A model generated the notes under the pieces. It saw nothing but the letters and a program-made list of their open reading frames with translations, searched no databases and was not told the origin of the DNA. Shown here piece by piece: positions 5,246 to 11,848 of a stretch of 64,000 nucleotides of DNA (positions within the stretch are counted from its first letter, which is position 1; every line of letters begins with the position of its first letter). Source of the DNA: a virus; the IMG/VR virus record IMGVR_UViG_3300018031_000005, positions 1 to 64,000 of that record; one strand, given 5' to 3'. Made by a program: the position numbers and the translations under genes.

Positions 5246-5581
5246 ATGTCGAGGTCTTATAAACATTATCCAGGTGGGGGCATTACAAAGGCACGTTCTG
5301 AAAAACGGGATAAGCGCATTGCTAATCGTAAGTTACGACGAGAGCAAGAAAATGGGTTGATAAGAGCACAAGAAGATGATAATTTAGACGGTCTAATGTT
5401 ACCTAAACTAAGAGAAGTAAGCGATGTATGGGGAATGGAAAAAGATGGGAAAATTTATTGGCCACATCCTGGTTTCGATCCTGATAAGTGGGATATTATA
5501 ATGGCCGAACTTAAAGGAACGACACCGGAACAAGAACATGAAAAGGATATAAAGTTTTGGAAACAATTCATGAGGAAATAA
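5246..5581 (+). CDS. hypothetical basic protein (111 aa)
   Basis: ORF track; AGGAGC upstream. Confidence 0.55.
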   Translation: MSRSYKHYPGGGITKARSEKRDKRIANRKLRREQENGLIRAQEDDNLDGLMLPKLREVSDVWGMEKDGKIYWPHPGFDPDKWDIIMAELKGTTPEQEHEKDIKFWKQFMRK

Positions 5582-5802
5582 AAAAATATAAATTACTTGG
5601 TCCTAACGGTTTTTATTATTCTGATAAACCAGGTGTTTTAGGAGGACATAAACGAGAAAAAATTTATGGTCGTTTAGATTGTCCTTGTGCATTACGCTGG
5701 ATAAAGAAAGGATTTTATGTGAAGTATCGTGTTTTCTTTGCTTCTGAAGAAGACGCTATTGCTTGTGGATATAGAAAGTGTAAAATATGTATGCTCGGTT
5801 AG
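5557..5802 (+). CDS. Ada-type zinc-binding-domain-like protein
   Basis: LDCPCALRW ... FFASEEDAIACGYRKCKIC resembles the Ada N-terminal Zn-binding domain pattern. The last 10 nt, including the TAG stop, lie inside tRNA-Ile. Confidence 0.45.
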   Translation: METIHEEIKKYKLLGPNGFYYSDKPGVLGGHKREKIYGRLDCPCALRWIKKGFYVKYRVFFASEEDAIACGYRKCKICMLG

Positions 5803-5868
5803 TAGAATGGTTTATCACGCAACCCTGATAAGGTTGAAATGGTGGTTCAATTCCATCACCGAGTACCA
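5793..5868 (+). tRNA. tRNA-Ile (GAT)
   Basis: Acceptor GCTCGGT/ACCGAGT (G1.U72); anticodon arm CAACC-CTGATAA-GGTTG; T arm GGTGG-TTCAATT-CCATC; encoded CCA. Confidence 0.8.
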
Positions 5869-5870
5869 AT

Positions 5871-5945
5871 TGTGAGGTAGCATAATAGTATTGCATCTGC
5901 CTGTTAAGCAGAAAAGTGAAAGTGCGAATCTTTCCCTCACAGCCA
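5871..5945 (+). tRNA. tRNA-Asn (GTT)
   Basis: Acceptor TGTGAGG/CCTCACA; TCTGC-CTGTTAA-GCAGA; T arm GAAAG-TGCGAAT-CTTTC; encoded CCA. Confidence 0.85.
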
Positions 5946-5947
5946 AT

Positions 5948-6022
5948 GGGCTGCTAGTTTATTTAGGAAAATTCCTGGTTTGCATCCAGGGGAGCCCGGA
6001 GCGAAGCCGGGGCGGTCCACCA
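5948..6022 (+). tRNA. tRNA-Ala (TGC)
   Basis: Acceptor GGGCTGC/GCGGTCC with G3.U70; CCTGG-TTTGCAT-CCAGG; T arm CCCGG-AGCGAAG-CCGGG; encoded CCA. Confidence 0.85.
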
Positions 6023-6040
6023 TTTTAAAGAAGGTAACTT

Positions 6041-6277
6041 ATGTTTGTTATTTTAACTTGTTCTTGTTTTCCTGATAAAAAATGTTGTTTGTCATGCCAT
6101 GAGGATGAAGAATTGGGATATTATGGCGAAGAACGTAATGAAATTCCAGAATATGTAAAGAGGAAATTTAATATTGATGGCTATGTAGCAACCTGTATTT
6201 GTAATCAGCCGGAAGAAAAAGAAATAGAAAAGGCAATTGAATATTATTTGAGTAATCATAATGCTCCCTTGGTGTAA
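6041..6277 (+). CDS. Cys-rich hypothetical protein (78 aa)
   Basis: ORF track; AAGGTAACTT upstream. The last 15 nt, including TAA, lie inside tRNA-Arg. Confidence 0.5.
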   Translation: MFVILTCSCFPDKKCCLSCHEDEELGYYGEERNEIPEYVKRKFNIDGYVATCICNQPEEKEIEKAIEYYLSNHNAPLV

Positions 6278-6336
6278 TAGAAACATAAGCGGTTTCTACC
6301 CGTTTGATGAGGGTGCGATTCCTTCAGGGAGTACCA
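6263..6336 (+). tRNA. tRNA-Arg (TCT)
   Basis: Acceptor GCTCCCT/AGGGAGT (G1.U72); AGCGG-TTTCTAC-CCGTT; T arm GAGGG-TGCGATT-CCTTC; encoded CCA. Confidence 0.8.
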
Positions 6337-6345
6337 GAAAATAAG

Positions 6346-6417
6346 GCCGGTTCGCCGAGGCGGTTGTCCGGGCTCATAATCCGAGATATAAAGGTTCAAA
6401 TCCTTTGGCCGGCACCA
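6346..6417 (+). tRNA. tRNA-Met (CAT), short D region
   Basis: Acceptor GCCGGTT/GGCCGGC; CCGGG-CTCATAA-TCCGA (one mismatch); T arm AAAGG-TTCAAAT-CCTTT; encoded CCA. I could not fold the D arm cleanly. Confidence 0.6.
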
Positions 6418-6472
6418 TTTTAAAAAACTTGGGTTGAAAAATTTTAGGAGATATAATAGAATGTAGGTATGT

Positions 6473-6551
6473 GGCCCGTTCTTCTAAATTGGACCAGGAA
6501 ACTAGACTTTCAATCTGGGCAATGAGGGTTCGATCCCCTCACGGGCTACCA
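6473..6551 (+). tRNA. tRNA-Glu (TTC)
   Basis: Acceptor GGCCCGT/ACGGGCT (G1.U72); CTAGA-CTTTCAA-TCTGG; T arm GAGGG-TTCGATC-CCCTC; encoded CCA. Confidence 0.8.
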
Positions 6552-6560
6552 ATTAAATAT

Positions 6561-6639
6561 AAGGAAGTGGAGGAGCTTGGTTTTCCTCGCCTGCCTTGGA
6601 AGCAGGAGATTCACGTGGGTTCAAATCCCACCTTCCTTA
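6561..6639 (+). tRNA. tRNA-Pro (TGG)
   Basis: Acceptor AAGGAAG/CTTCCTT; D arm GAGG-AGCTTGGTTTT-CCTC; CCTGC-CTTGGAA-GCAGG; T arm GTGGG-TTCAAAT-CCCAC; CCA not encoded. Confidence 0.8.
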
Positions 6640-6655
6640 CTAGATTATTATAAGT

Positions 6656-6730
6656 GGCTCCAGAGCTGTAGTAGATTAGCGCAAGCCTTTTAAGCTTGAG
6701 AAGCGGGTGCAATTCCTGATGGAGCTACCA
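6656..6730 (+). tRNA. tRNA-Lys (TTT)
   Basis: Acceptor GGCTCCA/TGGAGCT (G1.U72); CAAGC-CTTTTAA-GCTTG; T loop TGCAATT; encoded CCA. Confidence 0.8.
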
Positions 6731-6809
6731 ACTTAAAAATGAGATTTTATGAATATCGACATGGAAAAGGAGAAAATCATTTAGGTAAAATTTTAATGAA
6801 AGTACGTGC

Positions 6810-10822: not shown

Positions 10823-10830
10823 GAAAATAT

Positions 10831-10906
10831 AGGCGTATGGCCAAAAGGTTAAGGCTCCTGCCTTACAAGCAGGAAATTGTAGGTTCGAGTCCTACTACGC
10901 CTACCA
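10831..10906 (+). tRNA. tRNA-Val (TAC)
   Basis: Acceptor AGGCGTA/TACGCCT; CCTGC-CTTACAA-GCAGG; T arm GTAGG-TTCGAGT-CCTAC; encoded CCA. Confidence 0.9.
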
Positions 10907-10915
10907 GAAATAAGT

Positions 10916-10993
10916 GTGGCTCTGGCAGAGTTAGTTAACGCATCCGGCTGAAGCCCGGACTATCTCGGTGCGATTCCGGGGGGGGCCACACCA
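10916..10993 (+). tRNA. tRNA-Phe (GAA), with 2 extra nt in a G8 run
   Basis: Acceptor GTGGCTC/GGGCCAC; TCCGG-CTGAAGC-CCGGA; T arm CTCGG-TGCGATT-CCGGG. Two surplus G lie between the T stem and the acceptor 3' strand. Encoded CCA. Confidence 0.7.
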
Positions 10994-10995
10994 AT

Positions 10996-11072
10996 GCTTC
11001 GGTAGTCCAACTGGCAGAGATAAGGGTCTTAAAAGCCCCAAAGTGTGGGTTCAAATCCCACCCGAAGCACCA
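10996..11072 (+). tRNA. tRNA with Leu anticodon TAA, short (class I-like) variable region
   Basis: Acceptor GCTTCGG/CCGAAGC; GGGT-CTTAAAA-GCCC; 5-nt variable region; T arm GTGGG-TTCAAAT-CCCAC; A73; encoded CCA. Confidence 0.7.
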
Positions 11073-11083
11073 TTGAAAATTAA

Positions 11084-11159
11084 GCCGTTGTAGCCCAAAA
11101 GCAGAGGCACATCTCTCAAAAAGATGTTAGTGTTGGTGCGAGTCCATCCAACGGCACCA
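11084..11159 (+). tRNA. tRNA with Leu anticodon CAA, short variable region
   Basis: Acceptor GCCGTTG/CAACGGC; CATCT-CTCAAAA-AGATG; 5-nt variable region; T arm GTTGG-TGCGAGT-CCATC; A73; encoded CCA. Confidence 0.75.
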
Positions 11160-11168
11160 GAAATTAGT

Positions 11169-11245
11169 GGCCAAGTATCCCAAATGGCAGAGGAGTTGGT
11201 CTTAGAAATCAATTGTTGTGAGTTCGAGTCTCACCTTGGCCACCA
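11169..11245 (+). tRNA. tRNA with Leu anticodon TAG, short variable region
   Basis: Acceptor GGCCAAG/CTTGGCC; TTGGT-CTTAGAA-ATCAA; 5-nt variable region; T arm GTGAG-TTCGAGT-CTCAC; A73; encoded CCA. Confidence 0.75.
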
Positions 11246-11252
11246 TTTTTAT

Positions 11253-11328
11253 GGCTCGTTAGCCAAGTGGAAAGGCGGAAATCTGCAAAATTTCTATTAC
11301 ATAGGTTCGATTCCTATACGGGCCTCCA
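11253..11328 (+). tRNA. tRNA-Cys (GCA)
   Basis: Acceptor GGCTCGT/ACGGGCC; GAAAT-CTGCAAA-ATTTC; T arm ATAGG-TTCGATT-CCTAT; discriminator U73; encoded CCA. Confidence 0.85.
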
Positions 11329-11340
11329 TTGAAATTAAAG

Positions 11341-11427
11341 GGGTCAGTGTGCCGAGCAGCGAAGGCAAGAGTCTGTAAAACTCCCACAACTGAAACAACG
11401 TAGGTGCGAGTCCTACCTGACCCACCA
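11341..11427 (+). tRNA. tRNA-Tyr (GTA), class II
   Basis: Acceptor GGGTCAG/CTGACCC; D arm TGCC-GAGCAGCGAA-GGCA; anticodon loop CTGTAAA; long variable arm; T arm GTAGG-TGCGAGT-CCTAC; encoded CCA. Confidence 0.85.
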
Positions 11428-11430
11428 CGT

Positions 11431-11506
11431 GCGTTCTTGGTGTTAATAGCTAGCATATAGCCTTGCCAAGGCTACGGTGCGGGTGCAAGTCCCGCAGAAC
11501 GCTCCA
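11431..11506 (+). tRNA. tRNA-Gly (GCC)
   Basis: Acceptor GCGTTCT/AGAACGC; TAGCC-TTGCCAA-GGCTA; T arm GCGGG-TGCAAGT-CCCGC; U73; encoded CCA. Confidence 0.85.
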
Positions 11507-11525
11507 TTTTAAAAGATTAATTTAT

Positions 11526-11774
11526 ATGAAAGTAGTACATTGTAAAAAAGAACGATATGATGTTTATATTGGTAGACCATCTAAATGGAGAAATCCGTTT
11601 GTGATTGGTAAAGATGGAAATAGAGAAGAAGTCATAGAAAAATATAAAAAGTGGTTATTGAATAATAAAGAACTTATGGCAGATTTATGGGAATTAAGAG
11701 GTAAAATACTAGCATGTTGGTGTGCTCCTCAATCTTGCCATGGCGATGTATTATTAGAGTTAGCAAATAAATGA
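11526..11774 (+). CDS. DUF4326-like protein
   Basis: ORF 11463..11774 trimmed to ATG 11526, because the upstream part overlaps tRNA-Gly. YIGRPSKWRNPF ... LACWCAPQSCHGDVL pattern. The TGA stop overlaps the first 2 nt of the next tRNA. Confidence 0.55.
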   Translation: MKVVHCKKERYDVYIGRPSKWRNPFVIGKDGNREEVIEKYKKWLLNNKELMADLWELRGKILACWCAPQSCHGDVLLELANK

Positions 11775-11848
11775 GCTATTAGTGTTTAACAGCAGCACGT
11801 CGTCCTTCCAAGTCGAAAGTGAGGATGCAACTTCCTCATAGCTCTCCA
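11773..11848 (+). tRNA. tRNA-Gly (TCC)
   Basis: Acceptor GAGCTAT/ATAGCTC; TCGTC-CTTCCAA-GTCGA (one mismatch); T arm GAGGA-TGCAACT-TCCTC; U73; encoded CCA. Confidence 0.8.

Follow-up and report, generated by a model that had tools for sequence, protein, structure and literature searches.

The first 64,000 nucleotides (nt) of the IMG/VR virus record IMGVR_UViG_3300018031_000005, referred to here as the window, contain a tRNA island in which protein genes and tRNA genes share sequence: six open reading frames (ORFs) have their stop codons inside, or at the very 5' end of, the next tRNA gene. The window, with a GC content of 33.8%, comes from a metagenomic contig of 168,558 bp (ENA ERZ27267951, k141_1141138) on which one of the affected genes, that for a peptide deformylase (9747-10196), is found. 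Because a large terminase, a portal, and other phage genes are carried (an intein-containing ribonucleotide reductase, ThyA, DHFR, PhoH, and a Ro60/TROVE protein), the source is a large tailed phage. A DNA search of 50,697 GenBank phage records returned no close relative, and the only matches were tRNA sized. We thus assessed conservation on short metagenomic contigs.

ARAGORN identifies 22 tRNA genes between 5793 and 11506, all on the plus strand and all with an encoded CCA. Rfam confirms these and adds weaker ones, and with four to five further tRNA-like genes the phage set comes to about 26 to 27 tRNAs. On one strand, groups of tRNAs are interleaved with small ORFs, translation-related genes, and a gene for a homing endonuclease, and the spacers measure only 0 to 25 nt. 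The ORFs of the island begin 18 to 23 nt past the 3' end of one tRNA and finish in or at another.

Four of the six overlaps are deep, and all six genes and their tRNAs lie on the plus strand. An 81-residue ORF (5557-5802) ends 10 nt inside tRNA-Ile(GAU) (5793-5868; Rfam, 57.7 bits), the CCA-encoding first member of an Ile-Asn-Ala block, and its TAG (5800-5802) is tRNA nt 8 to 10. The other three end 15 nt inside their tRNAs on a TAA at tRNA nt 13 to 15: a 78-residue ORF (6041-6277; TAA at 6275-6277) in tRNA-Arg(UCU) (6263-6336; 51.8 bits), a 66-residue ORF (8640-8840; TAA at 8838-8840) in tRNA-Asp(GUC) (8826-8900; 58.6 bits), and the deformylase gene (TAA at 10194-10196) in tRNA-Gln(UUG) (10182-10258; 57.4 bits). 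The tRNA sequence encodes only the last four deformylase residues (CRVV). At the two remaining junctions the stop straddles the tRNA 5' end. The TAG of an HNH gene (7411-7794) shares its G with nt 1 of tRNA-Ser(UGA) (7794-7880), and the TGA of a DUF4326 gene (11526-11774) overlaps tRNA-Gly(UCC) (11773-11848) by 2 nt. ARAGORN calls the first five of these tRNAs. The tRNA-Gly is degenerate, scoring 32.2 bits in Rfam against a cutoff of 29 and appearing in ARAGORN at a relaxed threshold only; it has a perfect 7-bp acceptor stem and an encoded CCA, with one anticodon-stem mismatch and an atypical T loop. All six overlaps had been described in an earlier reading of the DNA made without database searches (the sequence-only reading), and ARAGORN, Rfam, the ORF list, direct reading, and a script agree on each. 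The sole ORF-to-tRNA junction of the island without overlap is that of a 57-residue ORF (6980-7153, plus strand), which ends 6 nt before tRNA-Trp (7160).

At least five of the six overlapping ORFs are real genes, and all of them were called as genes on the source contig. The deformylase matches PF01327 (88.7 bits), and its translation contains all three catalytic motifs (GxGLAAPQ as GLAAPQIG, EGCLS, and HExxH as HEYDH). The HNH homing endonuclease matches PHROG 2255 (E = 8e-26), and the DUF4326 protein covers the complete PF14216 domain (106.7 bits). By their family matches, these three and the GGQ protein described below count as certain genes. ORF 8640-8840 has a homolog, P0003, at 59% identity, from which we judge ATG 8640, and not position 8625, to be its true start. 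ORF 5557-5802 shows a weak match to the Ada-type zinc-binding family PF02805 (21.2 bits, E = 2.9e-4, under the cutoff of 23) that covers the C-terminal CxxC part of the domain and reaches the end of the ORF; its codon-usage score lies within the range of true genes, and a scan of IMG/VR with this ORF found nothing. ORF 6041-6277 is a cysteine-rich ORFan, with no homolog except itself in 5.8 billion proteins and no family match beyond a marginal PHROG one. Its codon-usage score of 0.40 is also within the range of true genes, although 65% of antisense open frames also score above 0 and the test separates genes from antisense weakly. By our own calculation, a 78-codon open frame at 34% GC has a probability of about 0.003 per frame. 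This ORF is probably coding because of its length, its codon usage, and the gene call on the source contig. The sequence-only reading had allowed that the small upstream ORFs might be noncoding; a homolog now speaks for 8640-8840 as a gene, and for 6041-6277 the support consists of length, codon usage, and the gene call.

The depth of the overlaps follows from tRNA sequence itself. We read 84 phage tRNAs, drawn from the window, T5, T4, Arash, and one further locus (L010; comparison loci are given L numbers here), in all three frames: 41 of the first in-frame stops end at tRNA nt 10 and 22 at nt 15. The conserved bases U8-A9-G10 supply TAG or TGA, and N13-A14-R15 supplies TAA or TAG. Offsets of 10 and 15 are thus conserved tRNA bases that form stops; they are unremarkable and are not evidence of design. 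We also considered, and rejected, the idea that the TAA at nt 13 to 15 was selected as a stop: the tRNA-Asp of a related contig (L021), which no gene overlaps, has the same T13-A14-A15, and in phage tRNAs as a whole the first stop falls most often at nt 10 or nt 15.

Overlaps of this kind are also common elsewhere. In a pooled set of about 20 other phage loci, small and resting partly on ORFs that are not confirmed genes, ORFs of at least 60 residues end inside the leading tRNA at 14 of 43 ORF-to-tRNA junctions, and a further 17 of the 43 end 0 to 15 nt upstream of the tRNA. The corresponding share in the window is five of six, or six of seven with DUF4326 (Fisher p = 0.027 when any overlap is counted and 0.10 when only deep ones are).

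Three short contigs, L021, L014, and L013, are the informative relatives, and they reveal how several of the overlaps arose. L021, 72 to 88% identical to the window in nucleotide sequence, carries in order a small ORF, two tRNA-Ser genes, the ORF 8640-8840 homolog P0003, a 118-residue gene, and tRNA-Asp. P0003 has its own stop (EKIKVL-stop) and is separated from tRNA-Asp by the 118-residue gene. DNA alignment places a gap in the window at this point: 415 bp of L021 that include the native stop and the entire 118-residue gene are missing, and the ORF now reads GVMV-stop from tRNA-Asp. The HNH gene is absent from L021, where the small ORF ends MTDSSSSSK-stop 1 nt before tRNA-Ser; the HNH gene of the window ends MNHSSSSSSI-stop. 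By this comparison the HNH gene was inserted in frame into the 3' end of an older 60-residue ORF and inherited both its tail (M-x-x-SSSSS) and its tRNA-Ser-adjacent stop. In L014 and L013, whose GGQ proteins are 83 to 85% identical to that of the window, the genes for GGQ protein, deformylase, orf12389, and PhoH are consecutive, with no tRNAs. Alignment of the L014 deformylase with that of the window extends to residue 144, after which L014 reads IQ-stop in place of NCRVV-stop, and no tRNA follows the L014 gene.

The sequence-only reading had proposed asking whether the overlaps are conserved in related phages. They are not: the relatives (L021 and L014) lack two of the four deep overlaps, which arose by deletion or insertion at the 3' end of a gene. 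Because L021 and the L014/L013 pair lack them, the tRNA-Asp and tRNA-Gln overlaps are lineage-specific indel joints and the island is a mosaic. An origin by indel or insertion is seen for three of the six overlaps. An IMG/VR scan with the deformylase was uninformative, returning relatives at 31 to 39% identity only, with no tRNAs nearby. As a separate observation, the 5' remnant of the older ORF (7257-7439) acquired a new end after the HNH insertion (window 7257-7794 against L021 1-131).

We scanned the plus strand for terminators and for promoters of the sigma-70 type; counts in both scans were not above shuffled expectation, and the scans served only as absence-of-evidence. Upstream of the island, a strong intrinsic-terminator-like hairpin (5177-5212, plus strand; a 15-bp stem with 6 GC pairs, then a T run) is probably where the preceding transcription unit ends. 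In agreement with the sequence-only reading, the scan found no convincing terminator between the six genes and their tRNAs. No convincing sigma-70 promoter was found at the six junctions either, and a match at 8812-8841 puts its −10 element inside the tRNA. Within the island, a sigma-70-like promoter (TTGAAA-17-TAGAAT, 6434-6462, plus strand; 10 of 12 consensus positions) immediately precedes tRNA-Glu (6473). Transcription may start internally there, so the island need not be a single transcript.

Taken together, the overlaps probably arose as a structural by-product of the assembly and reshuffling of phage tRNA islands, with no dedicated rescue system. Insertions and deletions, including homing-endonuclease insertion, would repeatedly have set a gene flush against a tRNA and removed its native stop. 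Translation would then enter the tRNA and end at the first in-frame stop, which conserved tRNA bases supply within 10 to 15 nt; with only three to five residues added, such joints would be tolerated. Since no terminator or usable promoter lies at the junctions, the ORFs are likely to be cotranscribed with the tRNAs. On any one transcript, translation of the full ORF and 5' maturation of the tRNA would then be mutually exclusive, and the two would compete: a ribosome terminating at tRNA nt 8 to 15 would unfold the acceptor and D arms, and an RNase P cut would remove the stop and leave the ORF without one. RNase P cleaves at tRNA position +1. The conditional claim of the sequence-only reading, that in a cotranscript this cut removes the stop codon, follows from that biochemistry and had already been proposed for T4 segB and the T5 F-Tfl genes (PMC2330249). 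The cleaved fraction would pass to general rescue by host transfer-messenger RNA (tmRNA) or Arf factors, possibly with the phage GGQ protein, and the net effect would be a lower yield of the affected proteins, as proposed for segB. A non-stop consequence for these messages is plausible by analogy with such systems.

Several points weigh against a mere by-product. The share of overlapping junctions in the window exceeds the roughly 33% found elsewhere (p = 0.027), a comparison drawn from the small set described above, and it leaves room for selection for overlap or for relaxed selection against it. An apparently functional deformylase is among the affected genes, and a costly by-product might be expected to have been purged. 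Relatives are available for only three of the six junctions. Cotranscription, RNase P cleavage, and the fate of the truncated message are read from sequence and from other systems.

We consider it unlikely that ORFs and tRNAs are instead uncoupled in vivo, by unrecognized phage- or host-specific promoters, by temporal classes, or because the first coupled ribosome finishes before the tRNA is complete and the mRNA is short-lived in any case, so that the embedded stops are used normally and non-stop messages are negligible. The T5 tRNA region is annotated with many internal promoters, some of which overlap ORFs and tRNAs; the promoter-like site at 6434-6462 is a good one, and promoters of other types lie outside a sigma-70 scan. 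Precise coupling is also not essential, given that E. coli tRNAs with 5' extensions of less than 8 nt are still aminoacylated (PMC7049720). However, none of tRNA-Ile, -Arg, -Asp, and -Gln is preceded by a promoter-like site with a usable start, and spacers of 0 to 25 nt leave room for a promoter only inside coding sequence. Any tRNA made from a read-through transcript would still need the +1 cut, which would sever the ORF.

Two further elements of the island bear on whether the overlaps serve a purpose. The first is a stand-alone GGQ (RF-1 domain) protein of 119 residues (7999-8358, plus strand; PF00472, 61 bits; PHROG 3122, E = 1e-25), with GPGGQ at residues 22 to 26 and no codon-recognition domains. 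The sequence-only reading had called it ArfB-like. Its status as a stand-alone RF-1/GGQ protein holds, and its assignment to ArfB does not. Against the ArfB NCBIfam model NF006718 it scores 27.9 bits, with a cutoff of 100, and only residues 7 to 38 match; no ArfB or ICT1 chain occurs among its 45 PDB sequence matches. An AlphaFold2 model (predicted local distance difference test score, 89.8) places helices at 54-95 and a beta-hairpin at 104-113 after the GGQ domain, and a Foldseek fold search ranks domain 3 of RF1/RF2 first, with ArfB 42nd and ICT1 43rd. The last 40 residues carry a net charge of −3; those of E. coli ArfB carry +12. Because it falls below the family cutoff and has a predicted acidic, folded C terminus instead of a basic tail, we conclude that the GGQ protein is not an ArfB ortholog. 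It may well hydrolyze peptidyl-tRNA on stalled ribosomes.

The family to which it belongs is mostly found away from tRNAs. Full-length relatives at 44 to 47% identity occur in about 205 Cluster C mycobacteriophages, where they are named "RF-1 domain peptide chain release factor" (PHROG 3122) and lie between DNA polymerase and UvsX, far from tRNAs. Homologs are away from tRNAs in four of the five other phage contexts examined, which include L041 (near a deformylase gene, with no tRNA in 13 kb), the T4-like L042 (beside UvsW), and the large phage L044 (among sugar-metabolism genes). GGQ genes do lie within or beside tRNA islands in L010/L011 and possibly in Arash. The GGQ protein predates these junctions, and nothing ties it specifically to them. 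GGQ and deformylase genes are linked in three related or semirelated contigs (the window, L014 1-759, and L041 1706-3309), with or without tRNAs between them; this linkage may represent a conserved nascent-chain or ribosome module. In the by-product account, the pair would be an older and separate translation module. L041, the 13-kb contig with the closest longer-context GGQ homolog, also has a Cas12f1-like/TnpB-type gene (PF07282) at 9469-10998.

The second element is a phage-encoded bacterial type-A RNase P RNA, which the sequence-only reading had placed at 10394-10733. Rfam locates it at 10407-10724 on the plus strand (RF00010, 165.7 bits against a cutoff of 100, model positions 1-367). It sits inside the tRNA array and is reduced, with about 43 model positions deleted, and the conserved P4 strands GAGGAAAGUCCGGGCUCCA and ACAAAACCCGGCUUA are present. 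The 19-nt P4 strand was found in 18 IMG/VR contigs, in 14 of which Rfam confirms an RNase P RNA. It lies inside or beside tRNAs in six loci that represent five distinct arrays: L024, L029/L025, L031, and L038, from contigs of 100 to 463 kb, and L023 (39.5 kb). A blastn search of GenBank phages gave no match, at a sensitivity limited for a 331-nt RNA, and we found no description of a phage-encoded RNase P RNA in the literature. Overlaps are equally frequent in arrays with an RNase P RNA (4 of 12 junctions) and without one (about 10 of 30). The RNA is best explained as added capacity to process some 26 phage tRNAs that lie close together. In E. coli, such operons are separated by RNase P, and supplying more M1 RNA increases RNase P activity in an rnpA49 mutant (PMC7049720).

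The sequence-only reading had linked the overlaps, the RNase P RNA, and the GGQ protein. In its strongest form, this would be a dedicated tRNA-punctuated system: one polycistron from which the phage RNase P RNA makes non-stop mRNAs and an ArfB/ICT1-like GGQ protein frees untagged, near-full-length proteins, avoiding tmRNA tagging and degradation. All three elements do share a strand and a span of 6.3 kb, overlaps are unusually dense, and the cut would cost only three to five nonconserved residues, so the released products should work. Every known stop-independent release factor has a stand-alone GGQ domain as its catalytic module, and GGQ genes in or next to tRNA islands recur in L010/L011 and possibly in Arash. 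We nevertheless consider such a system quite improbable. The overlaps are not shared by relatives; the GGQ-deformylase linkage occurs without tRNAs (L014 and L041), and the family occurs in other non-tRNA contexts (Cluster C mycobacteriophages, the T4-like phage, and L044). The GGQ protein fails the ArfB model, has ArfB and ICT1 only as its 42nd and 43rd matches by fold, and is without the basic C-terminal tail by which an empty mRNA channel is sensed. In T5 the overlaps are just as deep, yet no GGQ homolog or RNase P RNA is detectable, and arrays with an RNase P RNA show no excess of overlaps. The three-way link is thus unsupported.

That the pattern is partly an artefact, with some of the small upstream ORFs not being genes and fewer cases being real, seems very doubtful: the missing homolog and marginal PHROG match of 6041-6277, the Ada-like match of 5557-5802 under the Pfam cutoff, the weak codon-usage test, and the degenerate tRNA-Gly after DUF4326 point that way, but the deformylase, HNH, and DUF4326 genes are certain, ORF 8640-8840 has its homolog at 59% identity, 5557-5802 matches the Ada CxxC part to its end, all the ORFs were called on the source contig, and a 78-codon open frame is unlikely by chance at this GC content. 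Just as doubtful is a fully mitochondrion-like mode of expression, perhaps wider in tRNA-rich phages, in which the extra RNase P RNA would speed the cuts, messages for the deformylase and small proteins would routinely lack stops, and a new GGQ class (PHROG 3122) would free untagged products and make the phage independent of, or resistant to, host tmRNA.

The arrangement would have wider consequences if the non-stop outcome is true. A sizeable share of tRNA-island genes, about one-third of the junctions sampled, would be expressed from messages that lose their stops, and phage gene dosage would be tied to the RNase P and ribosome-rescue capacity of the host. The widespread, uncharacterized phage GGQ proteins would gain a concrete role. 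The question is directly testable in cultured phage T5, which has the same overlaps. Independently of this outcome, the phage-encoded RNase P RNA is real and interesting in its own right.

Other features of the window complete the picture of the locus. ARAGORN at default settings misses four elements of the island: a tRNA-Ile(UAU) of 49.8 bits (9174-9248), a weak tRNA-Thr(UGU) from a relaxed ARAGORN run (9098-9171), a 32-bit tRNA from Rfam (10918-10988), and a 26-bit tRNA-like element whose anticodon loop reads by eye as Lys-UUU (6657-6725). Upstream of the island lie a Ro60/TROVE RNA-binding protein (1223-2890; PHROG 850, E = 2e-70) and a protein of unassigned function (3919-4629; PHROG 7371, E = 4e-55). 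Ro is also found in Cluster C mycobacteriophages (ScottMcG gp225), which share the GGQ family with the window. The ribonucleotide reductase gene (20110-23970; 1,286 residues) has intein and LAGLIDADG signatures in precomputed Pfam matches and is another site of a mobile element. Between tRNA-Asp and the weak tRNA-Thr, an 81-nt stretch (9012-9092) is 90% identical to L013 72-152, a segment that immediately precedes the GGQ gene in that relative. The stretch may represent a small conserved ORF (9013-9153), which would itself run into the weak tRNA-Thr. A structured RNA at 8901-9097 was considered and rejected, with a folding z score of +0.8 and no Rfam family.

Among known release factors, the GGQ protein resembles ArfB (YaeJ) and ICT1 in having a single RF-1/GGQ domain, a length of about 120 to 140 residues, and no codon-reading domains, and it differs from them in lacking the basic C-terminal tail that fills the empty mRNA channel. 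Two E. coli systems resemble the layout in part. In secG-leuU an ORF is followed by a tRNA, as at the junctions of the window; the two share a transcript, and RNase P separates the secG mRNA from the leuU tRNA (PMC7049720). In contrast, secG keeps its stop. Processing into a non-stop mRNA has a precedent in arfA, whose stop codon is removed by RNase III (PMC10107115). Truncation of arfA is a regulated sensor of tmRNA activity, whereas the window shows nothing that indicates regulation.

The sequence-only reading drew a comparison with mitochondrial tRNA punctuation and ICT1, to which mtRF-R can be added as a rescue factor; the comparison holds for the layout only. Each ORF has tRNAs on either side with hardly any spacer, RNase P would set the mRNA 3' ends, and a stand-alone GGQ protein is present whose best match among solved structures is C12orf65/mtRF-R (43 bits). 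The comparison breaks down at stop completion. At the two edge junctions a cut at tRNA +1 would leave ...UA (HNH, 7792-7794) and ...U (DUF4326, 11772-11774), and added A residues could in principle rebuild UAA there, as in mitochondrial mRNAs. The four deep stops, in contrast, lie 8 to 15 nt inside the tRNA; the cut RNA would finish with a sense codon, which is AAT in three cases, and any A residues added would be read as Lys codons, so polyadenylation could complete only the HNH and DUF4326 ends. Bacterial poly(A) tails are, moreover, destabilizing. The layout is also not conserved among the relatives of the window.

The closest counterparts are other phages, and the arrangement is not new: it is already present in T5, T4, Arash, and many IMG/VR phages. 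In the T5 RefSeq record, coding sequences end inside the next tRNA at T5.057/tRNA-Met (6 nt), hegD/tRNA-Gln2 (23 nt), hegC/tRNA-Ser2 (14 nt), and T5.069/tRNA-Asn (24 nt), and T5.065 abuts tRNA-Lys. Two endonuclease genes of Salmonella phage Arash end 10 nt inside a tRNA (gp102c in tRNA-Phe and the HNH gene gp92c in tRNA-Leu). Among IMG/VR phages, a 239-residue ORF ends 10 nt inside a tRNA in L024 (a 463-kb contig), a 242-residue ORF ends 15 nt inside on a TAA in L070, and an ORF in L046 ends 5 nt inside. T4 segB, which lies next to tRNA-Arg, is part of a tRNA precursor transcript, and in 2008 tRNA maturation was proposed to remove its stop and lower its expression; the same loss was proposed for the T5 F-Tfl endonucleases (PMC2330249). 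Apart from that discussion, we found in the literature no direct prior description of a phage ArfB or of phage tRNA punctuation. The window shares with T5 and T4 the same-strand genes among tRNAs, many of them homing endonucleases and small ORFs, that end 0 to 24 nt inside the next tRNA or flush with it. It differs in that a housekeeping-type auxiliary gene, the deformylase gene, is also affected, in its higher share of overlapping junctions, and in its RNase P RNA and GGQ protein, both undetected in T5 and T4 at the sensitivity tested. The window adds an unusually dense example of a known architecture, and its relatives show how such overlaps arise.

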